The notes beneath the pieces are model-generated. The model was not told where the DNA came from. It saw only the letters and a program-made list of their open reading frames with translations, and searched no databases. Both the position numbers and the translations under genes were made by a program. Positions 2,540 through 15,447 of a DNA stretch of 18,863 nt are shown here, piece by piece (the stretch's first letter is position 1; every line of letters starts with the position of its first letter). This DNA is from a virus. The stretch lies in the UHGV virus genome UHGV-0268673; one strand, 5' to 3'.

Positions 2540-5286
2540 TGCCAGTCGTACCAACAGTATCCGGACGCCAGGCGCAAAGTCGTGGTGTGCAAACCGGTGG
2601 TTTTCAGATCTTCGATGTTCCTCAAGCAGGTCAGGTGCTGGCGAATGTCGCAGATCAGTATGCGGTGGCATATGGTGAAGCCAGGCAGAAAGCGAATGTT
2701 GCTATGGCCCAGGAGGCGTTACTGCAATTTAACCAATTTGCAGATGACCAGATTAACAACCCTGAAAGTGGGCTGATTTCTAAACAGGGTAAAAACGCTC
2801 TTGGTCAGAGTGACGCTGTTATGAAAAATATGCAGGAAAGGGCTCAGGCATTATTAGGCTCAATTCCTGAAAGTGAGGAAAGGAATAAATTATCCTTTCA
2901 ACTCCAGCAGTCTATGCAGTCTTATTACAATCAGGCACGTCGATATGAAGTTGGGCAGTTTCAGCAATTCCAAGATCAAACGTATTTGTCAGGAAATGCA
3001 TTGGCTGTCACTCAGTCTGCGGGGCTATATAGCGATAACCAAGCATTTGTCGATTTAGCCAAGCAGCGATTTGAATCTATTGATCAATACGCTGATGCGC
3101 ATGGGCTTCCTGATGAGTGGCGTGTTCAGCAGAAAACTCAGCTCAAGGAACAAATGGGGCAGCAAGCATGGATAGGAAATATCGCTCAAAAATACAACGA
3201 GTTTCTTCAGGTTAATGGAGAGCCAGGGGATCTTGATGGTGTGAGTCGTGCAATATCACATGGTAATTCATTGGATGCTCGTGGTTTACGTAATAATAAC
3301 CCTGGTAATATTGAAGCGAGCAAATCTAACCCGTGGGAAGGTCAGATCGGTAGCGATGGACGTTTTGCAACGTTTGCTACCCCTGAGCATGGAATCCGCG
3401 CGTTGGGTAAAAATATGTTGTCTTACCAGCGTCAAGGCTATGACACCGTTAGCGAGATTGTTAATCGCTATGCTCCGGCTAGTGATGGTAATAATACTGA
3501 TGCTTATATTAGGGCATTGTGTGGTGAGCTTGGTGTTGGGGAGAATGATCAGCTTGATATCTCTAACCCAAAGACACTAGCTGCTTTATGTGCTGGGATT
3601 ATTAAACACGAAAATGGCAGTATGCCTTATAGCACCGAACAGCTTGAAACTGGTATCTCGGCAGCCCTTGGTCTAACTAACCTTGATTCACCTAAGCGTT
3701 ATACGGGCAATGCGGCATTTGATGCTATGAGCCCTCAAATGCAAATACAGGCATTGAGGCAGGCTAATGAGCTGAGAAATCAGTACCGCCAGCAGTATGC
3801 GGACCAGCTTAGCACCGTAGTTAAAGATGCATATTCAGCCCTTGATGAAGGATTGAAACCTGAGAAGTTACCTTCTGAGGACGATTTTATCCGGGCCAAT
3901 GGTCCGCGCATTGGCGCTATGAAGTGGAAGGATATGCAGGCGCAGATACAATATGGAGGTGTCATTGGTGCCGCTAAAGACCTCACTCCAGAAGGACGAC
4001 AAGACATTCTTGAACGTTTACGTCCACAGGATCCAAACGCTCCTGGATTTGCAGCTAACCAGCAACGCTGGGAGAAAATGCAGGCCAAATTTAAAGAGAT
4101 GGATAGGGAGTGGGAGATTCAGCAGGGAAGAAACAGGTTCGTGTCTTCAATGCAAAATAACTTCCCGCTGGACCCGAACGACAAAAACAATCAGGCAGCG
4201 GTAGACCGTTATTTCGCGCAGGATATCGCGCCTTCGTTTTCCATATCTGATCCGCAGAGCATCAATACACTGGTCACCGTCACAACTAAAAGCGGCATGA
4301 TACCAACTCAGATTAAAACAATGCTTAACAGTGGAGCGACATCAAGAGATCCTGCGCTGGTTGTCCCGATGGCAAAATTCTACGGTCAGTTATTCGATAA
4401 TAATCCGGCGGCAGCGGCAACACTTGATAAAAGTACGATGGCATTTTACGGCAAGGTTTACGATTATTCCCGCGCTGGCGTGCCGGAGGATAAGGCTGTT
4501 GATATGGCTTACAGCCAGGTGTTCCAACAGGATGACCGAATGAAACAGATGCTTTCCACTGCCATGCGAGACAAAAAATATGTCGCGGCGAGGGCAACTG
4601 CTGCACAAAATAACGCCAGCAGTCTGACTTCCTTTGGTTCGTGGTCTCCGGATATTACCGATCCAGGAAAATCAAATGCGGCCTATCAGCGAGATTACCA
4701 GACAATTTACGATGCTAACTTTGTACAGACAGGTGGCGATGCAGAACAGGCTGAGAAAATGACCAATGCCATGATCAGAACCACTTGGGGAGTTTCTACG
4801 GTTAATGGCAAAGCAGAGGTTATGAAGTATGCACCTGAGGCATTGTACGGAGTAAATAATGGTGCTGGTAACTGGATTCAGGGGCAGTGGGAGCAGGAAA
4901 AACGCGAGCTTAAATCAAAATCCTTTGGCGGTCCTCGCAGTGATACGGACTTAATACTTGTTTCTGATAGCCTTACGGCAAGGGATAGGAGTTATGCTGT
5001 TATGGTTTTACAGCCTGACGCAAACGGAGCGATAGAACCGAGAAATTATATTGGAGAAAATGGTCTCCCTGTTCGTTTCAAGCCGGATCAGCTGACATCT
5101 CCAATGTACAGGCAAACCATTCAGTTCCAGCAACAGCGTGTTGATGAGGCTAGAGTGAGGAGAGAAGGCAATCCGCTGCCGCAGTTCAGCAATAAAGATG
5201 GATATACTCCTCCAGATCTGACCAAACCATTCGGTTATGGTTCAGCCAATTACCTTCCGAGCAATATATACGCAGGGGGCAAATAA
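2539..5286 (+). CDS. Large internal virion/ejection protein (915 aa from the ATG at 2539)
   Basis: The ORF track gives 2464..5286, but the ATG at 2539 has a strong GGAGG Shine-Dalgarno 6 nt upstream and overlaps the upstream stop (TAATG), so 2539 is the likelier start. Contains a conserved-looking block (…RGLRNNNPGNIEASKSNPWEGQIGSDGRFATFATPEHGIRALG…). Size and position match T7 gp15-like core proteins. Confidence 0.75.
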   Translation: MPVVPTVSGRQAQSRGVQTGGFQIFDVPQAGQVLANVADQYAVAYGEARQKANVAMAQEALLQFNQFADDQINNPESGLISKQGKNALGQSDAVMKNMQERAQALLGSIPESEERNKLSFQLQQSMQSYYNQARRYEVGQFQQFQDQTYLSGNALAVTQSAGLYSDNQAFVDLAKQRFESIDQYADAHGLPDEWRVQQKTQLKEQMGQQAWIGNIAQKYNEFLQVNGEPGDLDGVSRAISHGNSLDARGLRNNNPGNIEASKSNPWEGQIGSDGRFATFATPEHGIRALGKNMLSYQRQGYDTVSEIVNRYAPASDGNNTDAYIRALCGELGVGENDQLDISNPKTLAALCAGIIKHENGSMPYSTEQLETGISAALGLTNLDSPKRYTGNAAFDAMSPQMQIQALRQANELRNQYRQQYADQLSTVVKDAYSALDEGLKPEKLPSEDDFIRANGPRIGAMKWKDMQAQIQYGGVIGAAKDLTPEGRQDILERLRPQDPNAPGFAANQQRWEKMQAKFKEMDREWEIQQGRNRFVSSMQNNFPLDPNDKNNQAAVDRYFAQDIAPSFSISDPQSINTLVTVTTKSGMIPTQIKTMLNSGATSRDPALVVPMAKFYGQLFDNNPAAAATLDKSTMAFYGKVYDYSRAGVPEDKAVDMAYSQVFQQDDRMKQMLSTAMRDKKYVAARATAAQNNASSLTSFGSWSPDITDPGKSNAAYQRDYQTIYDANFVQTGGDAEQAEKMTNAMIRTTWGVSTVNGKAEVMKYAPEALYGVNNGAGNWIQGQWEQEKRELKSKSFGGPRSDTDLILVSDSLTARDRSYAVMVLQPDANGAIEPRNYIGENGLPVRFKPDQLTSPMYRQTIQFQQQRVDEARVRREGNPLPQFSNKDGYTPPDLTKPFGYGSANYLPSNIYAGGK

Positions 5287-8200
5287 TGCCGATATATGAA
5301 CAGGATCCTAAAGAGTTGCTTGGCGAGGATATTCAGCAAATAGCAGCACCTGATGACAGTAATTTCTATATGGAAACACCTTCTTTGCTTTCTGCTGTGA
5401 ACCCATTTACCAGTGATCAACGCGTTCAAAGGTCTAGACAAGCAGCATTTCGTATAGATAACACGCTGGGTAGCTTTATTGCCAGTGCTCCTTTCAGTCA
5501 GTTTGACAGGGTTGAAGGATATAACCCATTTGATAACGATGCAGCAGATATTAAAGGCTATGAAGATTTTGCAGATTCGTTTATCAACTCCGGTTCGCAT
5601 GAAGAAACAATGGCAATTAAACATCGAATCGATAAGCAAAGAACAGATAGAGAATATCTATCTGAAATGGGTGGTGCTGGTACTATTTCAAGCTTAGCAA
5701 TGGGAATGATAGACCCGGTTAATGTGGCTGCAATGTTCATCCCTGTAGGGGCGGTAGCGCGTGGAGGAAGTATTGCTGAGACGGCAGGGCGTTTTGCCCT
5801 GGCGAATGCTGCTGGTGGGGGAGTATCAGAAGCCGCATTACAGGCCACTCAGGAAGCTCGCTCACCGATGGAGAGCGTATCGAACGTTGTTGTTGATGCT
5901 CTCGTTGGTGGGATCCTTGGTGCTGGTGCACAGCTACTTGCTGGACCTAGCGCGCGCGAGGCAGTGGTTAACTCAGTAGGTAATCATTTGCGAGGTATGG
6001 ATTCTCCTCAAAGCATTGGTGCAGCTCAGGTTTTCAATACCACACTCGATCAGGAACAGCTCGCTGGACTTGGACTTGCTAACAAAACGTTGAGTGTCAC
6101 TCCTGCTGGCCGCTTGGCGCAATCACCATCTCTTGTCTCCCGTCAGATTAACCAGCAGCTTGCCGAAAATAACTATTTCTTCGCCAAAAATGATGAGGGG
6201 TTGGCTACGTTTACGGCAGTCGAGACTAAGATTAAGCAATACGACGCCATGCTTTATAAGCAGATGGAAGCCACTCGTGATGCTTACCAGCAGTACAGCA
6301 AATCTGTTAGCGCCCGCGGCGTGAAGAGGATGAACTTTATTGATTTCAATGAAGCTGTTGGCATGGCCATGCGCCGTGGTGATCAGAGTGATATTCCTGA
6401 GGTTTCACAAGCTGCCGCCAGAATCCGCCCCATTTTCGAGACCACAAAAGCCCGTATGCAGGAACTGGGGATCCTTCCTGAGGATATCGATGTCGTGACG
6501 GCGAAAAGTTATCTTCCCCGCATTTATAAGTTCGATAAGATACTTTCCGACCGCACTGAATTCAGAGGGCGAATTGCCAACTGGATACAAGGGATTAGTG
6601 CCAAAGGTGCTGACAAGGCAGGTCAGCGAATTGAAAGGATAAATTCATTGCTAAAAACTGCAGAGGAATCGGCACCGCGCGCTGATGCTCTCGCTAGTGA
6701 AATCGCTGAAGCGGAGAAATGGTCTGGTAAAAAAATTCTACTCATGGAAGAACTGGATAAACGAAATAAGCTTATATCTCAGGAGACTGACACACAGGCG
6801 CGTCTTACAAGAATAGAAAAAGAGTTGGCCGAGACTTCATCAGAAAAACTTCAGGCAAGAATGATGAAAGAAAGCTCTGACCTTAAAACACGCCTTGATG
6901 ATATAGCGCAGGCAAAGAGTGAGCTTCCTATCTATCAGCGCCATATGGAATTGCTGGATAATCCACGGAAATATCGTTCTGAGCTTCGCCGACTGCAAAA
7001 ACGGGCAAATTCAACCACAAGGCTGAATGCAAGCCGCGAACGAGCACTGAAGCAGATGGAGCCTCTATCCCGAGAGGAAGCAGAGGACGCTGCTGACGAG
7101 ATCGTGAATAAAATAATAGGCGCACCTTCCGGGCTTGTACCAGCCGATATTATCCCAGAGAGACTCGTTGGTCGGGCTGGTTTCACTAAAAGCAGAACGC
7201 TGCTTATTCCTGATGAGCGTATAGAAGATTTTCTTGAATCAGATGTTAACTACATCATGGAAAGTTATCTCCGGCAGGTGGCACCAGAAATTGAGCTGAC
7301 TGCGCAGTTTGGCCGTAAAGATATGGGGGAGCAAATCCGTCAGGTTAGTGAGGAATATACCCGGCTAATAAAAGAGGCTAAAACACCTAAACGACGTGCA
7401 GTTCTTGAGAAGCAACGGGAGGCTGATATTAGGGATATTACGGCTATGCGTGATCGACTGCTTGGTACTTACGGTGCACCTCAAGATCCACGCAGTTTCT
7501 TTGTTCGTGCCGGGCGAGTTGCTAGGAATATTAACTTCCTCCGTTTGCTTGGTGGAATGACTGTCTCCGCTGCAACTGATCTGATGCGACCGATGATGCA
7601 GCATGGCCTGAGAAAATCTCTCGGACCAATGGTAAGCATGCTTAAAAATATGGACTCAGTGAAAATTGCAACCAGGGATTTGCGAGAAATGGCCGTTGGG
7701 CTTGATTATGTCCTGTCTACGCGTACAAAGGCTATAGCGGATCTTACTGACCCCTATAGCCGGAGAAGCGCCGCTGAGCGAGGTCTGAACTGGATGACGC
7801 AGAAATTCGGTAACTGGACGCTGATGAATCAGTGGAACAGCGCACTTAAATCATGGTCCGGGATGATAGTGCAGTCGAGGATACTTGACGCGGCTCGCCA
7901 AGTTTCTGCTGGTGGCACGCTCTCCAAAAGTGAAATGCGGAAGATGGCACAGGTCGGCATCAATGAAGATGTTCTGCGCCGAATCGGGGAGCAATTCGGG
8001 AAGCACGGAGAGGATATGGACGGGCTGTTAACCGGGCATAGTCATCTGTGGGATGACCGTTTCGCTAGAGAGATTTTCCAGTCTGCAGTGCTGAAAGATG
8101 TAGACTCAGTGATTGTAACGCCTGGCGTAGGTGATACACCGCTGTTTTTTAGTAAAGAAGGCTGGAAGATGATCACGCAGTTCAAAACGTTTATCTTCGC

Positions 8201-8675
8201 ACAGCATAACAGGGTGCTGGTATCTGGTATCCAGCAGGGCGATGCTGCATTCTATCTTGGTGCGCTTGGCACGATTGCGCTTGGCTCAATGGTCTATATG
8301 ATGAAACAGAAGTTAAGCGGTCGCGATATCGACTACAGCTGGAATAACCTTGTGAAAGAGGGGATCGACCGGGGCGGAATGCTTGGCTGGCTCTCTGAGC
8401 CGCTGAATACCGTTGAGAACATAAGCGGCGGTAGGTTTGGTCTTGGCGCGATGTTTGGTGCGCCTCCGGTATCAAGGTTTCAGAGTCGTAATGCTATTGG
8501 TGCTTTACTTGGTCCTACCTTTGATCTTGGCGGTGATGCCGCGACGGTTGCGAATGGTGTACTTAACGGAGAATTTGACAGCCAGCAAACCCACGCGGTC
8601 CGTAAAATGCTACCTTTTCAGAACCTGTGGGCGATATCACCGTTACTAAATAAAGTTGAAGAGCAGATGAAATAG
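5286..8675 (+). CDS. Very large internal virion/ejection protein (1129 aa) with a central coiled-coil-like segment
   Basis: ATG at 5286 overlaps the upstream TAA. Long uninterrupted ORF with a heptad-like charged region around residues 450-600. Size and position resemble T7 gp16-type proteins. Confidence 0.75.
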   Translation: MPIYEQDPKELLGEDIQQIAAPDDSNFYMETPSLLSAVNPFTSDQRVQRSRQAAFRIDNTLGSFIASAPFSQFDRVEGYNPFDNDAADIKGYEDFADSFINSGSHEETMAIKHRIDKQRTDREYLSEMGGAGTISSLAMGMIDPVNVAAMFIPVGAVARGGSIAETAGRFALANAAGGGVSEAALQATQEARSPMESVSNVVVDALVGGILGAGAQLLAGPSAREAVVNSVGNHLRGMDSPQSIGAAQVFNTTLDQEQLAGLGLANKTLSVTPAGRLAQSPSLVSRQINQQLAENNYFFAKNDEGLATFTAVETKIKQYDAMLYKQMEATRDAYQQYSKSVSARGVKRMNFIDFNEAVGMAMRRGDQSDIPEVSQAAARIRPIFETTKARMQELGILPEDIDVVTAKSYLPRIYKFDKILSDRTEFRGRIANWIQGISAKGADKAGQRIERINSLLKTAEESAPRADALASEIAEAEKWSGKKILLMEELDKRNKLISQETDTQARLTRIEKELAETSSEKLQARMMKESSDLKTRLDDIAQAKSELPIYQRHMELLDNPRKYRSELRRLQKRANSTTRLNASRERALKQMEPLSREEAEDAADEIVNKIIGAPSGLVPADIIPERLVGRAGFTKSRTLLIPDERIEDFLESDVNYIMESYLRQVAPEIELTAQFGRKDMGEQIRQVSEEYTRLIKEAKTPKRRAVLEKQREADIRDITAMRDRLLGTYGAPQDPRSFFVRAGRVARNINFLRLLGGMTVSAATDLMRPMMQHGLRKSLGPMVSMLKNMDSVKIATRDLREMAVGLDYVLSTRTKAIADLTDPYSRRSAAERGLNWMTQKFGNWTLMNQWNSALKSWSGMIVQSRILDAARQVSAGGTLSKSEMRKMAQVGINEDVLRRIGEQFGKHGEDMDGLLTGHSHLWDDRFAREIFQSAVLKDVDSVIVTPGVGDTPLFFSKEGWKMITQFKTFIFAQHNRVLVSGIQQGDAAFYLGALGTIALGSMVYMMKQKLSGRDIDYSWNNLVKEGIDRGGMLGWLSEPLNTVENISGGRFGLGAMFGAPPVSRFQSRNAIGALLGPTFDLGGDAATVANGVLNGEFDSQQTHAVRKMLPFQNLWAISPLLNKVEEQMK

Positions 8676-9116
8676 CTATTCACAATTAGTGATGGCGTAT
8701 GTATCAAATATATTGCCATCACTAAATACATACCTATACTCAATCTCTCCGCCAAGGTGAATAAATGCTTTCATTTGCCTGTTGGCGCAAATGCTCGATT
8801 TTGAATAATTTCGCATTACACTCTTTAATTTATTTTCTAAGGTTACATCACCATTATAAGCTTTTGATAAATAGCTGTTGTTGTAATTAAGATGCGCTAC
8901 AACTAAAAGTTTGTTTAGTATTGCATTTATTGAAACAATAGACATATTATCATTCAATTTTATGGGAAGTGACTTTCCTGCTTCTGATGCGATTTTGTTT
9001 GCATGAGCACACATATCCTCATTTATTAAATTCTTAAAACATATGTCGTTTGCAAACGAAAAAATTGGTAGGATAAACAAAACGGTGGCTGTAATAGCGT
9101 GCATCGGCTTAATCAT
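8676..9116 (-). CDS. Secreted/periplasmic protein with N-terminal signal peptide and four Cys (146 aa), unknown function; AT-rich cargo gene
   Basis: N-terminus MIKPMHAITATVLFILPIFSFA↓ND looks like a Sec signal peptide. Strongly AT-rich codon usage compared with the flanking virion genes. Its stop abuts the stop of the convergent upstream gene (TAGCTA at 8673-8678). Confidence 0.55.
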   Translation of the reverse strand: MIKPMHAITATVLFILPIFSFANDICFKNLINEDMCAHANKIASEAGKSLPIKLNDNMSIVSINAILNKLLVVAHLNYNNSYLSKAYNGDVTLENKLKSVMRNYSKSSICANRQMKAFIHLGGEIEYRYVFSDGNIFDTYAITNCE

Positions 9117-9128
9117 TAGGTGACCTTT

Positions 9129-9578
9129 ATGTTCAAGAAGATGATCAACAGATTAATCGGTGGTAAGGAGGTTAGCAATAAAATTCAACCTCTTATCTTT
9201 AAGGATAACTTTTCAGCTTTTGAGTATGCGTGTAAGTATCTTGACACAAGCCTTTCAGCCAATAAACCAATGCCAGCCATCATCATACCTGGTCCCAGTG
9301 GGGAACAGCCAGTTTTGCTAGATTCTGGAAGACAAAGGGCAATGCTGAAGGTGTGCTCAGCTGATGGTGGATTTTTTGTTATTGCCGATTCATCTTACAG
9401 CAAAGGACCAAAGCTGAGGATTGGTGATCTTGTTGCTTGGTTGCCTGTGAGTTATGCCGAAGAATTAACGGATAAAATAGAAGATCCTCGCTCCGCTATG
9501 GTTGGCTTTATATTGGGAACCATTCATCCTGAACTAACATCTACTGGCTGGAAGGGTAAAGAAAGATTTCGCAAGTAG
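9129..9578 (+). CDS. Hypothetical cytoplasmic protein (149 aa from the ATG at 9129)
   Basis: The ORF track starts it at GTG 9120; the ATG at 9129 has an AGGTGA Shine-Dalgarno 7 nt upstream. Followed by a clear intrinsic terminator. Starts head-to-head about 12 bp from the start of the minus-strand gene. Confidence 0.5.
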   Translation: MFKKMINRLIGGKEVSNKIQPLIFKDNFSAFEYACKYLDTSLSANKPMPAIIIPGPSGEQPVLLDSGRQRAMLKVCSADGGFFVIADSSYSKGPKLRIGDLVAWLPVSYAEELTDKIEDPRSAMVGFILGTIHPELTSTGWKGKERFRK

Positions 9579-9591
9579 CGTGACATGTCAC

Positions 9592-9616
9592 AGGCCGCGA
9601 AAGCGGCCTTGTTTTT
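9592..9616 (+). terminator. Rho-independent terminator for the 9129..9578 gene
   Basis: Stem AGGCCGC / GCGGCCT with GAAA loop, followed by TGTTTTT. Confidence 0.6.
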
Positions 9617-9693
9617 AACGAATGCCACTGCCGCCCGGGCGGGAATCCACAGAACGCCCACCGCAGCGGGAGCCGTCAGCGGCAGTATCGCTG

Positions 9694-10014
9694 TTATACT
9701 ATTGAGTTAAATGATATCTTGTCCTTAATATCATTAAGTTTGCCATGTATCTTTTTTGCATAAGAATCAGCTTCCTCAATAAACTTCGACTTCTCATTAT
9801 CAGGCATATTTTTGAAGGTATGTGCACATGTATATTGAGAGTAGTAATTGTGAAACTTGTTATACAAATTATTGAGTTCTTGTAAGTCTTTTTTATACTC
9901 AGGAAGGTATATGTTTATTAGCATTTCCATCGTTTGCAACGGATTGACTTTTGATGTGTCAAATTTACTACCAGAGTGGTAACTGGCATTGTTAACAAAA
10001 TTGAGAATAGCCAT
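9694..10014 (-). CDS. Hypothetical protein (106 aa), very AT-rich; last gene of the minus-strand cargo cluster
   Basis: Uninterrupted ORF in a roughly 30% GC stretch (judged by eye). Weak ribosome-binding site, so confidence is only moderate. Same orientation and spacing as the upstream membrane-protein genes. Confidence 0.45.
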   Translation of the reverse strand: MAILNFVNNASYHSGSKFDTSKVNPLQTMEMLINIYLPEYKKDLQELNNLYNKFHNYYSQYTCAHTFKNMPDNEKSKFIEEADSYAKKIHGKLNDIKDKISFNSIV

Positions 10015-10079
10015 TTCGCTTGAAGCTATGGCTTTTTCAGTAAGTATGCAATTTGTGAATAATTGCTCACGTTTATCTC

Positions 10080-10196
10080 TTAATATTTTTCGCGCTCTAA
10101 TTTTATGCTGTTTTTGTATCCTTGCCTTGCACTTATGTAAGTAGAAACTATAGCAATAACTGCACCTATCAATGCTCCTAAGATAGTATTATCCAT
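10080..10196 (-). CDS. Small single-pass membrane peptide (38 aa: MDNTILGALIGAVIAIVSTYISARQGYKNSIKLEREKY), absent from the ORF track
   Basis: Hand translation of the minus strand. ATG at 10196 is preceded by AGGTGG with a 5-nt spacer; TAA stop at 10082-10080. Hydrophobic core GALIGAVIAIV. Sits between the 287-aa membrane-protein gene and the 106-aa gene. Confidence 0.45.
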   Translation of the reverse strand: MDNTILGALIGAVIAIVSTYISARQGYKNSIKLEREKY

Positions 10197-10221
10197 ATAA
10201 GCCACCTAAACTGCGTAAAAA

Positions 10222-11085
10222 TTATTTCCTGCCACTTCTGTAGTATATGTTGCGACCATTTTTGGTCACATTAACAACATGACCCTTTGTTTCTACTTTG
10301 TTATTTGTTGCCTTATATACTTCAAAGTCAAACCATGATATATGACTTATTTCGTCTATAGATACCATAATTTCTAGACCTTGAACTTTCTTTTTGCTTA
10401 TCCCTTTTATCGCAGCACTGCGCTTAATTTGGATTTCACCTGGGTAAGCGTTTGTAAATGTAACAGATAAATTTTCTTTGTTTCTGTACCCTGACATTAA
10501 AGGAACAAAAGATATGTGTTGGTGTGGCCCTTGATTTTCCGTTGGCTCACCAGAACCATTTATTATTCCAACGTATACTTTATTTGATGATAAAGTAATT
10601 AACATTGGTTTCTTAGGATCTGATTCGATTGCATCAAGCAATAGCAAATCTAAAGAACCCTGGGAGTACGTTTTTCGCAATACTCTAGCTTTCATTGCCT
10701 CTGATATTTTGTCATAAATATCACGTTTATAAAAAAAACCTAAAAGAAGATCTTTTAGCCAAACAAAAGATACATAACACAAAGAGAAGCAAATTGATGT
10801 GACTGACAGAAGAAGTAGCCACATGTAAATTCTATCTGTTTCTGGTTTTGACGTTACATTAAAAGTTTCCACCATATCGTGAACTAGGTGAAAATCAGGA
10901 TATTTATATTTTATAAATGCGGCAATTATTACTGAAGCAACAAGGCAATATGTACCTAATGCAGCTACTTTCATATAAAGAAGCTGGCCTTCATGTCGGT
11001 ATAAACGGAAATAATGATACTGGTTAGCGGTTATCATAATATAACCACTAACCAGAATGGGGATAATTAGAAGAGCTAACAACAC
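10222..11085 (-). CDS. Inner-membrane protein with three predicted N-terminal TM helices and a roughly 175-aa soluble C-terminal domain (287 aa); candidate exclusion/defence/conversion effector
   Basis: GTG start at 11085 overlaps the TAG of the upstream 69-aa gene (TAGTG) and has an AAGGAAA Shine-Dalgarno. Hydrophobic stretches at about residues 2-20, 38-60 and 86-110. AT-rich. I recognise no family. Confidence 0.7.
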   Translation of the reverse strand: MLLALLIIPILVSGYIMITANQYHYFRLYRHEGQLLYMKVAALGTYCLVASVIIAAFIKYKYPDFHLVHDMVETFNVTSKPETDRIYMWLLLLSVTSICFSLCYVSFVWLKDLLLGFFYKRDIYDKISEAMKARVLRKTYSQGSLDLLLLDAIESDPKKPMLITLSSNKVYVGIINGSGEPTENQGPHQHISFVPLMSGYRNKENLSVTFTNAYPGEIQIKRSAAIKGISKKKVQGLEIMVSIDEISHISWFDFEVYKATNNKVETKGHVVNVTKNGRNIYYRSGRK

Positions 11086-11294
11086 TATTTCCTTACAGTG
11101 GCAAGATCCTGTTTAACGATTGCAGCAGCGAGACGACGCATCTCCTTAACCTCAGGAAGCTCAGAAATTTGCTGTGATGAGATATACACTCCACCACGCT
11201 TGTTAACCTGCGCTGACGCCGGAACTTCTGCATTTTTTGCCTGAGGGCTGGGTGCATTATCCCTCGTTTTTGTACGAGCGAACCAAAATCCCAT
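11085..11294 (-). CDS. Small basic protein (69 aa), possible regulator; first gene of the operon driven by P1/O1
   Basis: Strong GAGGAGGAG Shine-Dalgarno 4 nt upstream of the ATG at 11294. Promoter-like TTGCAG-17 nt-TACTAT sits upstream with the palindromic operator O1 immediately after the -10. Translationally coupled to the 287-aa membrane-protein gene. Confidence 0.6.
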   Translation of the reverse strand: MGFWFARTKTRDNAPSPQAKNAEVPASAQVNKRGGVYISSQQISELPEVKEMRRLAAAIVKQDLATVRK

Positions 11295-11320
11295 ATCTCC
11301 TCCTCATGTAAACACATGGT

Positions 11321-11335
11321 TTACCTTTAAGGTAA
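11321..11335 (-). promoter_or_regulatory. Operator-like palindrome O1 (TTACCT-TTA-AGGTAA) overlapping the -10/+1 region of the promoter for the 69-aa/membrane-protein operon
   Basis: Perfect 6-bp inverted repeat with 3-bp spacer. On the minus strand the order is -35 TTGCAG, 17-nt spacer, -10 TACTAT, operator. One of three copies of the same palindrome in the island. Confidence 0.5.
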
Positions 11336-11406
11336 TAGTACGCTATTCACCCCCAGTCTGCAATCTGTACAGAATTATTTAAAGGCACGTCCCTGTGCCG
11401 CCGCCG

Positions 11407-12102
11407 TCAGAAGAACCCTGCTTTGTCGTTGATGTACTCCGCGTGCGTCTGGATATCACGCAGGCATTTGCTCACACCGACGATGTAGCAGAACATGGTG
11501 GTCAACTCCGCCGCCGCGCCCGATACGTCATGCCCGTCTTCCTGTAACTGGTTCAGCAGATTCATCAGCAGTGAGTTCTCCGTCAGGCCGAGAACACCAG
11601 ACGGAGAATGAATCAGGCTGCGGTAGCCTGGCTTCAGTGGGGCGCTGTAGGTTTTGTTCTCTATCTTCATCGCCTGCATCACTGCTGATGCTGTGGCGTT
11701 TGCAACCTGGTCGGCAACCATCTTTATGCGTTCTTCCTGCGGGAGCGAGTTTTTAATGTAACTTCCGGTGCGGCGGATCTGAGGAAGAACCTCACCTGTA
11801 ACCCATTTACGAAAGCGGTAGGGGATAGTGCCTGGTGTCACTGCGTCGCGGCAGCGGAGGATCAGTGTGTAGAGGCCTGACTCGGAGATGATGATCGATT
11901 CTTGCTCACCGCCAGGGGTGTCGGTTGAAGCGACGCCCTTCTCATCATCATCAAGTTTTCGAACAGCATCTCGATGGTTTGCTATGCCTATAGCCCGACA
12001 AACATCTGAAGCGATAAACCATGGCTCACCATTAATGACGATTACCCGTATATCGGCTTGGGATTCGAAAGAAAAAATGGACGTGCTTTTTGTAGCTGTC
12101 AT
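11407..12102 (-). CDS. Phage anti-repressor-like protein with an N-terminal Bro-N domain (231 aa)
   Basis: N-terminal region IRVIVINGEPWFIASDVCRAIGI…DEKGV…GGEQESIIISESGLYTLILRCRDA…FRKWVTGEVLPQIRRTGSY matches the Bro-N/AntA-type pattern. AAGGTAA Shine-Dalgarno upstream of the ATG at 12102. C-terminal ~65 aa is paralogous to the 85-aa protein at 12418..12675. Confidence 0.8.
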   Translation of the reverse strand: MTATKSTSIFSFESQADIRVIVINGEPWFIASDVCRAIGIANHRDAVRKLDDDEKGVASTDTPGGEQESIIISESGLYTLILRCRDAVTPGTIPYRFRKWVTGEVLPQIRRTGSYIKNSLPQEERIKMVADQVANATASAVMQAMKIENKTYSAPLKPGYRSLIHSPSGVLGLTENSLLMNLLNQLQEDGHDVSGAAAELTTMFCYIVGVSKCLRDIQTHAEYINDKAGFF

Positions 12103-12259
12103 AGTGGTTACCTTTTAGTCTGGTTAATCACCACTACCGACGCCAATCGGTTGGTGGTGAACTGTGCAGGGTTGGCGTAACCGGCTAAAAGGACCCGGCG
12201 CACCTTTCGGTGCCCCCACACAGCCCACCATAATACGAATGTGGCCGTGCTATACGCAT

Positions 12260-12279
12260 AAAAAAACCGCTTGCGCGGT
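12260..12279 (-). terminator. Rho-independent terminator on the minus strand, between the 85-aa gene and the anti-repressor-like gene
   Basis: Minus-strand read: ACCGC-GCAA-GCGGT hairpin (GNRA-like loop) followed by six T (plus-strand A-run 12260-12265). Confidence 0.5.
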
Positions 12280-12371
12280 GAATGCGCCTTTTAGTAATCC
12301 GGGACGCCAATCCCGGCACTGGATTTTGCCAGTGCCCGATTACTATGGCACAAGAGGAGTGCGATGTAAAT

Positions 12372-12386
12372 TTACCTCAAAGGTAA
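12372..12386 (-). promoter_or_regulatory. Operator-like palindrome O2 (TTACCT-CAA-AGGTAA, extended ATTTACCT…AGGTAAAT) with associated promoter-like elements
   Basis: Minus strand shows -35 TTGCAA (plus 12409-12414), 16-17-nt spacer, -10 TTATAT/TATATT, then the operator at the putative +1. Same architecture as P1/O1. Confidence 0.5.
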
Positions 12387-12417
12387 ATATAAGCACTCCA
12401 CTTGGTAATTGCAAACC

Positions 12418-12675
12418 TTATCTGGTTTGTTTTCGTAATTGTTCGGCACAATAGTCGAGATGTGTTTGCAGATCCTGCATAGACATCTGTGAGCTGGTGA
12501 CGTAGTTAATCAGTGCAGTCAGTTCGGCAAGTGGGCCATCGACATTAAATCCATCCTTATCGAGATCCCGGAGTAATTTCATCAAGTGCGATCCCTCCAC
12601 CAGTGACCTGACGCCTCCCGGCGTGTGAATCCTTTCGGTAAATCCGTCTTCCAGTGGATAGTGATACTGCTGCAT
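12418..12675 (-). CDS. Small protein (85 aa from the ATG at 12675) homologous to the C-terminal domain of the adjacent Bro-N anti-repressor-like protein; candidate SOS-inducible anti-repressor-type regulator
   Basis: The ORF track starts at TTG 12693; the ATG at 12675 has a GGAGA Shine-Dalgarno 7 nt upstream. Roughly 40-45% identity by eye over about 64 aa to residues ~165-228 of the 231-aa protein (e.g. LMKLLRDLDKDGFNVDGPLAELTAL vs LMNLLNQLQEDGHDVSGAAAELTTM). LexA box and O3 lie upstream. Confidence 0.65.
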   Translation of the reverse strand: MQQYHYPLEDGFTERIHTPGGVRSLVEGSHLMKLLRDLDKDGFNVDGPLAELTALINYVTSSQMSMQDLQTHLDYCAEQLRKQTR

Positions 12676-12694
12676 CTTATCTTCTCCATGCAAT

Positions 12695-12714
12695 AACTGT
12701 ATATTTATACAGTA
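12695..12714. promoter_or_regulatory. LexA (SOS) box: AACTGTATATTTATACAGTA
   Basis: CTGT-N8-ACAG with an AT-rich spacer, about 18/20 match to the E. coli LexA consensus TACTGTATATATATACAGTA. Lies between the promoter region and the ribosome-binding site of the 85-aa gene and overlaps a TATAAAT -10-like element on the minus strand. Confidence 0.6.
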
Positions 12715-12751
12715 TCAAATAATTTGTTTGCTATCCAGCACGTTTTGCAAA

Positions 12752-12766
12752 TTACCTGAAAGGTAA
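12752..12766. promoter_or_regulatory. Operator-like palindrome O3 (TTACCT-GAA-AGGTAA, extended ATTACCT…AGGTAAT), flanked by the self-complementary TTGCAA hexamer
   Basis: Third copy of the palindrome, in the divergent intergenic region between the 85-aa gene (minus) and the tailspike gene (plus). Could serve a promoter in either direction. An extra AGGTAAT half-site lies at 12811-12817. Confidence 0.5.
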
Positions 12767-12870
12767 TATCTATTCGTATTTACAGCCTTTCTATCCATAT
12801 GTGGTTTTTCAGGTAATAAAATAACCAGATATGCGGCGCAACGGGTGCTGCGACTATCTGGAGATTTAAC

Positions 12871-15447
12871 ATGACGGTCTCAACCGAAGTTGACCACAAC
12901 GAATACACTGGTAACGGCGTTACGACATCATTTCCGTATACCTTCCGTATTTTCAAAAAATCCGACCTGGTTGTTCAGGTGTCTGACCTTAACGGTAACG
13001 TAACAGAACTAGTACTGGATACCGGTTATACGGTAACTGGGGCGGGCACTTATAGTGGCGGTTCTGTTGTTCTTCCGTCGCCGCTTGCTGCTGGATGGCG
13101 AATTACGATAGATCGTGTGCTTGATGTAGTGCAGGAGACAGACCTTCGCAATCAGGGAAAATTTTTCCCCGAAGTGCATGAAGATGCCTTTGACTACCTG
13201 ACGATGCTGATCCAGCAATGTTTTGGGTGGTTCAGACGTGCATTGATGAAACCATCTTTGCTTGCAAAATATTACGATGCAAAGCAAAACAGAATTTCTA
13301 ACCTTGCAGATCCATCATTTGAGCAGGACGCTGTAAATAATCGCTCAATGCGTAATTATGTTGATGCTGCAATCGCCGGGGTTGTTGGTGGTTTTGGTTG
13401 GTTTATTCAGTATGGTTCTGGAGCAGTATACCGAACGTTCCAGGATAAGATGAGAGATATCGTCAGTGTTAGCGATTTTGGTGCAAAGGGAGATGGAATA
13501 ACTGATTCTACGGAGGCGTTCTCTAATGCAGGCCACAGAGCGTTTGTTCCTAATGGCGATTTTGCAGTAAATACTCTCGAAGTTGATGTATCTTCTGTTC
13601 AAGGTATTGGGAGGATTGTTGCTGATAATGGATCTCTTATTTCAGTTTCTCGTCTACTTGAAACTGACAAACTTGTGCAGAGAAAAATGATGGAACCTTT
13701 TTTTGGTTTTCAGGGAGAAACAAACACAGAAATTTATCCTAATGCCAGAAATGCGTTACAGGGGATCGCATATTGCCGTGTTAATGGCATTGAAAAACTA
13801 TTTGTCACACAACGGCCTGTTGGGCCAACCTGGTCAGATAAAGAAAGAGTTCGTATTGTTGAGTTTAATCTTTATGATGATGGAAGGGTAGTAAACCATG
13901 TTGCGTATTCTCCAGAATTAAACCTTGGGCACGGATTTGATCTTTCTGCCATGGTGGAGAATGGTCAAGTATATTTATATACATCAAGTGTAACCAATTC
14001 AGGTGAAGATGGGGAGTCTGCAGGCAAAGGGTTTAGTAAAATAACTTGGCGAGGGGCAGGAACAACTCAGTCTGACGTAAAAAGTTATAATGTATGGGGG
14101 ATTACTGGTAGCGGTCACCCATTTCAAGATTACAATCGTGCAGGAATTGCCATTTCTTCTGACGGTCGTCTTTTAATAATGGTTAATACACCAAAGAGTG
14201 ATGCCGCTAAACGAACTGTATTTATATACGATAAAATATCAATTGATAAACTTGAAGATAAAACATTAGCAAACCCCATGTTTGTTTGGGAAATGAGCGA
14301 CTCACCTTCTGAAGGCGCTTACTCTGTACAAGGTATTGCGTCTGATGGAAGATATATACATATACTTAAGGGAGGGACTAACGCTTTTGGAAAGCATCAT
14401 ATCTTTACATATGATTTAACAGGTAATTTACTAAGAAAATTAGATATCGATGATGCAAGGTCGCAATATGGGCGCGATGGGTTGCTTAACCATCCAACTC
14501 TTGGGAATCCAGCCAGATTTGAGCCGGAAGGTCTAACTATTCGTGGTGAAGAAATAATTATAAGCTGCATAGAAACATGGAGGGCAGGAGCTAATATTGT
14601 AAACTGGCGTGGAAGAAGATGGGCTGCATCATCCATTGAGACTTCTGGAATAATTGGTGTCCCTCCATCAAATGGCTCTTATTGGGTAGAAACAACCAAG
14701 GATGCAAATTCTGGAGATTGGAGTCCTGAAACAGATTATGGATGGGGAAGTAGCTATTCTCTTGAGAAAAAGACAATTTACTCTATACGACCAGCGACTG
14801 GTAACAACGATGAGCAGAACCTTAATTCTGGCATAACCAATGCTTCAAGTAATGCAGGTGCAGATGCCGGAGAAAGCGGGCGAAATATATCATTTAGATG
14901 GCGCAATGCTTTTAATATTGTTGCATTTAGCGAACGTCTTGGTGAGTACTTCAAAGCTATTATGTATGATAATAGCTCAAGATTAAGAATATACGATCAG
15001 CAAAACGGTAGTGATAACACTGTTTATGGCTCAATCCAGGCACTATTTACGTCATCATTTAAGGGATTGATTTTAAGGGGTAGGGGGGTATCAGCATCAA
15101 ATAGTTCCTATATTAGGTTACATTCATCTGATGATCCAAACTACCCAAATTCGATCATTGAAGGAACAAGAACAGATGGAAGTTTTTCCAGGGAAACAGA
15201 TTCAAACGGAACCACTACATTTGCATCGGACTCAGAGCACGAACCGTTGCGTATCAGAAGGGCTTCAGATGGTTTGTTGTTTGCATACGAGAAAGTAAGA
15301 GGTACAACTCTCTTTGGAATTTATAGAGGCTCCGGTTCACCTGAGGGTGTTGTGACCGCACCTCAGGGGTCAATGTACATTGATTATAATGGTGATTGGT
15401 ATCAAAAGAAAACAGGAACAGGAAATACAGGATGGGTGTTAAAATAG
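12871..15447 (+). CDS. Tailspike/tail fibre protein (858 aa) with T7 gp17-like N-terminal virion-attachment domain and a large C-terminal receptor-binding/enzymatic region
   Basis: GGAG Shine-Dalgarno 7 nt upstream. The N-terminal ~120 aa (…YTGNGVTTSFPYTFRIFKKSDLVVQV…ITIDRVLDVVQETDLRNQGKFFPEVHEDAFDYLTMLIQQ) follows the conserved pattern of the T7 tail-fibre N-terminal domain. Long Gly/Ser/Thr/Asn-rich remainder is typical of tailspikes. Confidence 0.85.
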   Translation: MTVSTEVDHNEYTGNGVTTSFPYTFRIFKKSDLVVQVSDLNGNVTELVLDTGYTVTGAGTYSGGSVVLPSPLAAGWRITIDRVLDVVQETDLRNQGKFFPEVHEDAFDYLTMLIQQCFGWFRRALMKPSLLAKYYDAKQNRISNLADPSFEQDAVNNRSMRNYVDAAIAGVVGGFGWFIQYGSGAVYRTFQDKMRDIVSVSDFGAKGDGITDSTEAFSNAGHRAFVPNGDFAVNTLEVDVSSVQGIGRIVADNGSLISVSRLLETDKLVQRKMMEPFFGFQGETNTEIYPNARNALQGIAYCRVNGIEKLFVTQRPVGPTWSDKERVRIVEFNLYDDGRVVNHVAYSPELNLGHGFDLSAMVENGQVYLYTSSVTNSGEDGESAGKGFSKITWRGAGTTQSDVKSYNVWGITGSGHPFQDYNRAGIAISSDGRLLIMVNTPKSDAAKRTVFIYDKISIDKLEDKTLANPMFVWEMSDSPSEGAYSVQGIASDGRYIHILKGGTNAFGKHHIFTYDLTGNLLRKLDIDDARSQYGRDGLLNHPTLGNPARFEPEGLTIRGEEIIISCIETWRAGANIVNWRGRRWAASSIETSGIIGVPPSNGSYWVETTKDANSGDWSPETDYGWGSSYSLEKKTIYSIRPATGNNDEQNLNSGITNASSNAGADAGESGRNISFRWRNAFNIVAFSERLGEYFKAIMYDNSSRLRIYDQQNGSDNTVYGSIQALFTSSFKGLILRGRGVSASNSSYIRLHSSDDPNYPNSIIEGTRTDGSFSRETDSNGTTTFASDSEHEPLRIRRASDGLLFAYEKVRGTTLFGIYRGSGSPEGVVTAPQGSMYIDYNGDWYQKKTGTGNTGWVLK

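Follow-up and report, generated by a model that had tools for sequence, protein, structure and literature searches.

The DNA analysed here is a stretch of 18,863 nucleotides of the virus genome UHGV-0268673 (hereafter the window), which represents part of an epsilon15/phiV10-like temperate podovirus of the genus Uetakevirus. Over positions 12100-12900, the window shares 99% identity with Escherichia phage vB_EcoP_ZX5 and 96% with phiV10. At this locus, a gene encoding an 85-aa protein (ant) and the tailspike gene diverge from an intergenic gap of 195 bp, which houses a LexA (SOS) box along with the elements listed in Table 1. A second cassette follows downstream of ant, likewise on the minus strand, and consists of a promoter covered by the operator O2, an isrK RNA with its terminator, a C4 RNA and a gene for a Bro-N protein. 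Further along the minus strand, at 8676-11294, four accessory genes (146, 106, 287 and 69 aa) matched only PHROGs of ‘unknown function’, and searches of Pfam, NCBIfam and PADLOC gave no match for any of the four. Most of 2585-11383 has no match in ZX5, the closest phage, the sole aligning piece being 120 bp at 9575-9694; the region is thus mosaic.

Table 1. Elements of the ant-tailspike locus and of the adjoining cassette, in window positions unless noted otherwise.
Feature	Position	Strand	Remarks
Bro-N antirepressor, 231 aa	11407-12102	minus	Pfam Bro-N, 2e-21, residues 17-107
C4 antisense RNA	12150-12235	minus	Rfam RF01695, 77.7 bits vs. gathering score 45
isrK-family RNA	12260-12335	minus	Rfam RF01394, 77.9 bits vs. 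gathering score 50
isrK terminator	12266-12279	minus	
O2	12372-12386		over -10/+1 of predicted minus-strand promoter TTGCAA-17-TATATT (12414 to 12386), at the start of the neighbouring cassette
ant (85 aa)	12418-12675	minus	ATG at 12675
Ribosome-binding site of ant, GGAG	12684-12687	minus	8 nt before ATG; conserved in relatives
LexA (SOS) box AACTGTATATTTATACAGTA	12695-12714	palindrome	ant-sense strand reads TACTGTATAAATATACAGTT
Putative ant promoter	12709-12737	minus	read by eye from the sequence; conservation
Putative ant -35, TGGATA	12737 to 12732	minus	17-nt spacer to -10
Putative ant extended -10	TG (of TGn) at 12717-12716; -10 TACTGT at 12714 to 12709	minus	
O3 ATTACCTGAAAGGTAAT	12751-12767		between the ant and tailspike promoters; putative Rep operator, consensus
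Tailspike-side promoter-like element TCCATA-17-TAAAAT	12794-12822	plus	by eye; conserved, TAGAAT in relatives
Tailspike gene	12871-15447	plus	divergent from ant
rep genes compared	ZX5 13182-13766; SPC32H 9740-10336		local numbering

Among solved structures, the 85-aa protein matches a single one, PDB 5D50, through its chain E (‘Anti-repressor protein’; phmmer E=4e-47, residues 2-84); this chain is the Ant protein of Salmonella phage SPC32H, bound to the repressor Rep. A protein alignment gives 87% identity between the two, and the GenBank record of SPC32H carries ant (261 nt) at the syntenic position, divergent from tsp. Judged by sequence, the 85-aa gene is the orthologue of SPC32H ant. Its map position, with the virion genes on one side and the divergent tailspike gene on the other, is that seen in the records of SPC32H, epsilon15, phiV10 and ZX5. 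The same gene is found as gp19 in epsilon15 and gp24 in phiV10, where it is annotated as hypothetical, and the family is filed in PHROGs as phrog_450 with ‘unknown function’. Pfam gives no significant match for Ant (DUF724 scores 17.6 bits, below its cut-off of 38.4), and NCBIfam has no model for it. A longer frame of 91 aa, which starts from the TTG at 12693, was rejected: the ATG at 12675 and the GGAG before it are conserved, and this ATG fits the N-terminus of Ant in the crystal structure.

The preliminary description of this DNA, made from the sequence alone, had placed a near-consensus LexA box in front of the 85-aa gene, and the sequence is there as described. The box AACTGTATATTTATACAGTA departs from the E. 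coli consensus TACTGTATATATATACAGTA at positions 1 and 11 only, the other 18 of its 20 nucleotides being identical, and has the form of an E. coli SOS operator, i.e. a 20-bp palindrome TACTGT-(AT)4-ACAGTA located at a promoter. It holds the single occurrence of CTGT-N8-ACAG in the window. It should be noted that this bare motif is not rare on its own, as 0.21 copies are expected by chance and 42 of 200 shuffled sequences contain at least one. The box was scored with a symmetrised LexA matrix based on 31 E. coli SOS boxes, after the lists of Lewis and of Fernandez de Henestrosa. It reaches 26.7 bits, above every training site (12.2-26.1 bits) and above the best score in 300 versions of the window randomised with a first-order Markov model (20.6 bits; 0 of 300 reach the box). 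Its heterology-type index, computed with our own table, is 1.2-1.3, compared to 1.1-10.1 for the training sites. The full 20-mer is far beyond chance. A site so close to the consensus should bind LexA tightly, and may fire only under sustained SOS. The runner-up in the window, AACTGTATTTATATACGATA (14214-14233, inside the tailspike gene), was discarded as a LexA site; it has one good half-site, and its 13.8 bits fall within the chance range.

A simple scan for sigma-70 consensus promoters found none for ant. Reading by eye and the conservation among relatives point to an extended -10 promoter that overlaps the LexA box, with p95 of phage 186 as the analogous case (see below). The columns CTGGA.A and T.TG.TA.TGT are invariant in an alignment of eight phages, and the base following the TG is free to vary among the IMG/VR loci. 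The putative -10, TACTGT, constitutes the first six nucleotides of the box, so that bound LexA would span roughly -12 to +8. The box had been described as lying between the promoter region and the ribosome-binding site; this placement has to be revised, as the box instead covers the best-conserved -10 candidate and the expected start site. The TATAAAT element that was said to overlap the box on the ant-sense strand is indeed present (12709 to 12703). As a conserved -10 it was rejected, since the relatives differ at this point (TATGTTT, TATAAGC and TACATAT) and the paired -35 would be AGCAAA. Another candidate -35, TTGCAA beside O3, was also rejected because its paired -10, which reads ACAAAT here and TGATAT in SPC32H, is not conserved.

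The conservation of the box was assessed by aligning the region between ant and the tailspike gene from eight phages and adding that of five prophages (Citrobacter, Erwinia, Pseudocitrobacter and Scandinavium). These 13 relatives represent at least eight genera, namely: Escherichia, Salmonella, Enterobacter, Klebsiella, Citrobacter, Erwinia, Pseudocitrobacter and Scandinavium; the scan of representative genomes contributed only 5 loci. All 13 retain the box, at 19-28 bits. The layout on the ant-sense strand is identical in 11 of them. The palindrome TTACC-N5-GGTAA, placed at -91 relative to the ATG, is followed by TGGATA, by a spacer of 17 nt with TGn at its end, by the box as TACTGT-N8-ACAGT, and by 19 nt with the GGAG that lead up to the ATG. 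Two Klebsiella phages have ATGT in place of CTGT, score lowest (19 bits) and show a gap of 18 nt to the ATG; at their -35, CTGGAAAA replaces TGGATA, and they have no TGn. The AT-rich spacer of the box occurs in at least nine forms and the half-sites are conserved, which is the pattern expected of a protein-binding palindrome. On a finer scale, the half-sites are intact in 68 of 69 near-identical E. coli-type IMG/VR loci (47 distinct upstream sequences), the single exception being a rearrangement breakpoint within the box. The 80 IMG/VR matches listed are all 99-100% identical, and thus inform on micro-variation and not on distant relatives.

The box of the window aligns column for column with that of SPC32H. 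Over the 5.4 kb compared, SPC32H and its sister phage SPC32N differ at 2 nt, one of which changes ACAG to AAAG in the ant LexA box of SPC32N and lowers its score from 25.5 to 18.5 bits. Kim and Ryu (2013) reportedly counted two differing nucleotides between the complete genomes. The single change in the LexA site, which overlaps the ant promoter, reportedly renders the production of Ant constitutive in SPC32N. Reviews that cite this work (Kim & Ryu 2013) state that Ant is made after the self-cleavage of LexA (PMC7380047; PMC9437464). In addition, Ant forms tetramers, and these break up the tetramers of Rep (PMC9638917).

The rep gene of this phage lies outside the window. In ZX5, the closest relative that is complete, Rep has 42% identity with SPC32H Rep, compared to 87% for Ant; contact between Ant and Rep is therefore assumed for the phage studied here. 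Both Rep proteins have HTH domains (HTH_3 in ZX5), and neither matches Peptidase_S24. The lack of an S24 peptidase domain fits with the need for an antirepressor. As a separate observation, a comparison of E. coli-type with Salmonella-type phages shows that the two partners have diverged unevenly, with Ant and the operator consensus kept far more closely than Rep.

Three perfect copies of TTACC-N5-GGTAA are present in the window, at 11321-11335 (O1), 12372-12386 (O2) and 12752-12766 (O3), a count reached in 0 of 200 shuffles. The epsilon15 record contains seven such sites, the equivalent of O3 among them, which its depositors annotated as repressor-binding. In epsilon15, and likewise in ZX5, clusters of these operators flank rep and single copies precede other operons. 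This annotation and the cluster pattern make it very probable that O3 serves as an operator for Rep. In the case of O1 and O2, the palindrome overlaps the -10/+1 region of a minus-strand promoter, predicted by a scan and by eye, which suggests direct repression of each accessory operon by Rep. O3 is placed differently: it is separated by 13 bp from the putative ant -35, upstream of it at about -49 to -65, and lies approximately 60-80 bp upstream of the tailspike-side promoter-like element. Its target may be ant or the tailspike operon, or it may take part in a DNA loop. The spacer of the tailspike-side element also contains a conserved half-operator, GGTAAT.

In the neighbouring cassette, the C4 RNA has exact complements (CTAAAAGG, GTAACC, GTGGTGA and TTGGCGT) to the leader and ribosome-binding site of the Bro-N gene. 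Residues 150-227 of the Bro-N protein, a C-terminal stretch of 78, are 42% identical to the whole of the small Ant (BLASTP 8e-16; hhalign 99.1%), and they also match 5D50_E (phmmer 1e-13). By sequence comparison, the C-terminal domain of the Bro-N protein is a paralogue of Ant, so that one phage carries two Ant domains under what appear to be different controls. The cassette is a variable insertion: several E. coli relatives do not have it, and SPC32H and epsilon15 possess the small Ant only. When the ZX5 orthologue of the Bro-N protein, ORF4, was overexpressed, lysogeny was reduced; that study tested the Bro-N protein only and does not mention the small Ant (PMC9782041). An ‘ash family protein’ CDS annotated in ZX5 (1779-1892 in local numbering, equivalent to 12108-12221 of the window) overlaps the C4 match, and a 96-aa plus-strand ORF at 12164-12454 lies opposite isrK and C4; both are probably not real genes. 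PADLOC returned nothing for the unknown genes in this neighbourhood.

Taken together, the orthology of Ant, the synteny, the fixed geometry of the box and the half-site change in SPC32N bear out the earlier proposal that a small antirepressor is under SOS control through LexA. The box, with its strength, conservation and position, is a plain feature of this DNA, as are the relationship of Ant and the gene order. With a probability of about 0.9, we take the locus to be the LexA-Ant-Rep induction switch of epsilon15-like podoviruses, as characterised in SPC32H. LexA most likely represses ant. In the lysogen, dimers of the host LexA would occupy the box, and ant is proposed to be silent because the box overlaps its -10 and start site. 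Upon DNA damage, RecA would become active, LexA would cleave itself and the 85-aa Ant would be made. The tetrameric Ant would then bind the C-terminal domain of Rep and pull the Rep tetramer off its TTACC-N5-GGTAA operators, and with Rep gone from the operators the lytic genes would be turned on. For this phage, the binding of LexA, the SOS-dependent expression of ant and the binding of Ant to Rep are expected by orthology or from the literature. ZX5 lysogens can be induced with mitomycin C (PMC9782041).

Several other readings of the locus were weighed against this switch. The least probable, to which we give almost no credence, is that the box is a chance AT-rich palindrome or the site of another protein and does not bind LexA. 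The bare CTGT-N8-ACAG is not rare, as noted above; however, the score of the full site tops all training sites and randomisations, the half-sites are conserved where the spacers vary, and a natural mutation of a half-site sets SPC32N apart. It is also very improbable that the box controls the divergent tailspike/lysis operon and not ant. The intergenic region that contains the box is common to both genes, but the box is 157 bp upstream of the tailspike ATG, beyond both O3 and the tailspike-side promoter-like element, and only 19 nt from the ant ATG, where it overlaps the ant -10. The role of O3 is a more serious matter. The preliminary description had combined the LexA box with this separate operator and proposed dual control; the palindrome is real and has the consensus of a Rep operator, and its action on ant is hypothetical. 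Under dual control, Rep at O3 would also repress or modulate the ant promoter, and Ant would relieve its own repression in a positive feedback. We regard this as possible, at odds well short of even. The perfect palindrome is held at a constant distance (-91 from the ATG) in the relatives, and the overlap of O1 and O2 with the -10/+1 of their predicted promoters suggests that Rep governs each operon. On the other hand, O3 lies 13 bp beyond the -35, at roughly -49 to -65, which is the wrong place for simple occlusion, and it sits equally between ant and the tailspike-side element, so that it may serve the latter or a DNA loop. Furthermore, the lone mutation in the LexA box of SPC32N is reportedly enough for constitutive Ant, in which case Rep at O3 would be insufficient by itself.

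A last reading accepts a functional box and questions the part played by the small Ant, which would not be the main trigger but would be redundant with the Bro-N/Ant protein or act in trans on co-resident prophages. The window does encode another antirepressor, whose C-terminal domain is paralogous to Ant, and overexpression of its ZX5 orthologue lowers lysogeny. From E. coli-type to Salmonella-type phages, Ant has also changed much less than Rep, and LexA-controlled antirepressors that act in trans are known in the Gifsy/Fels prophages (PMC3121763). Nevertheless, SPC32H and epsilon15 have the small Ant only, and the Bro-N cassette is variable and missing in several E. coli relatives. We therefore consider this reading unlikely, less so than the first two discussed, and retain the LexA-Ant-Rep switch as the explanation of the locus.

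The LexA-antirepressor mechanism is already known, having been characterised in SPC32H, which belongs to this genus as well (Kim & Ryu 2013, J Virol 87:11775; Kim et al. 2016, PNAS 113:E2480; PDB 5D50). The two phages share the orthologous Ant at its position divergent from the tailspike gene, and the geometry of LexA box, promoter and ribosome-binding site is the same, as is the Rep operator upstream. They differ in host, which here is E. coli, and in the spacer of the box (ATAAATAT here, ATGTTTAT in SPC32H). In addition, ant is followed here by a minus-strand insertion of 3.7 kb that includes the second antirepressor cassette, which SPC32H does not have.

The module had also been likened to Tum of coliphage 186, a parallel that holds for the function and for a LexA box over the -10 and breaks down at the level of the protein. 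According to the annotation of the 186 record and its sequence, the -10 of the LexA-repressed tum promoter p95 (TACTGT, 29044-29049) begins the LexA site (29044-29063), and Tum is likewise a small antirepressor that couples SOS to a non-cleavable repressor. However, 186 is a P2-like myovirus and Tum has a DinI-like part; a comparison of Ant with Tum gave a BLASTP E=0.06 over 46 residues and an hhalign probability of 0.2%, which leaves Ant outside the Tum family. Kim and Ryu reportedly found Ant to be structurally distinct from GfoA, GfhA and Fels-2 Tum. Gifsy-1, Gifsy-3 and Fels-2 resemble the present system in that LexA-repressed antirepressors drive their induction and the repressors are not cleaved (Lemire et al. 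2011, PMC3121763). They differ in being lambdoid or P2-like prophages, with the antirepressor genes at other map positions.

The locus does not have the organisation of P22 immI (Mnt/Arc): no Arc/Mnt-type Pfam match was found among the neighbouring ORFs, and the controls here are the LexA box, the Rep operators and the isrK/C4 RNAs. For the neighbouring cassette, the likeness is to immI of P1/P7 (C4 RNA-icd-ant) and to isrK-orf45-anrP of Gifsy-1 (PMC4825925), given that isrK and C4 directly precede the Bro-N gene and that in P1, too, C4 is complementary to the leader and ribosome-binding site of the antirepressor gene. Unlike in those systems, the cassette lies downstream of a LexA-controlled ant and behind a Rep operator, and its protein bears a C-terminal domain resembling SPC32H Ant.

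This arrangement raises the prospect of a two-tier cascade, in which LexA-gated Ant would strip Rep from DNA, the O2 promoter would be derepressed and an RNA-gated Bro-N::Ant fusion would be released. We put this forward as a speculative scheme with a rather low chance of being correct. If true, the second antirepressor would lock in induction or extend it to the repressors of co-resident prophages, and the paralogy between Ant and the Bro-N protein would pinpoint the repressor-binding module of the large and poorly understood class of Bro-N antirepressors. At present, this paralogy represents a modest new lead.

With the mechanism being established, the value of the finding lies mainly in annotation. 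Among 5,426 complete E. coli genomes, 531 (~10%) carry the ant region, and the gene is a ‘hypothetical protein’ in the RefSeq records listed. The same group also includes the phiV10-like phages of O157:H7. Recognising ant explains how these E. coli prophages can be SOS-inducible despite a repressor without a cleavage domain.
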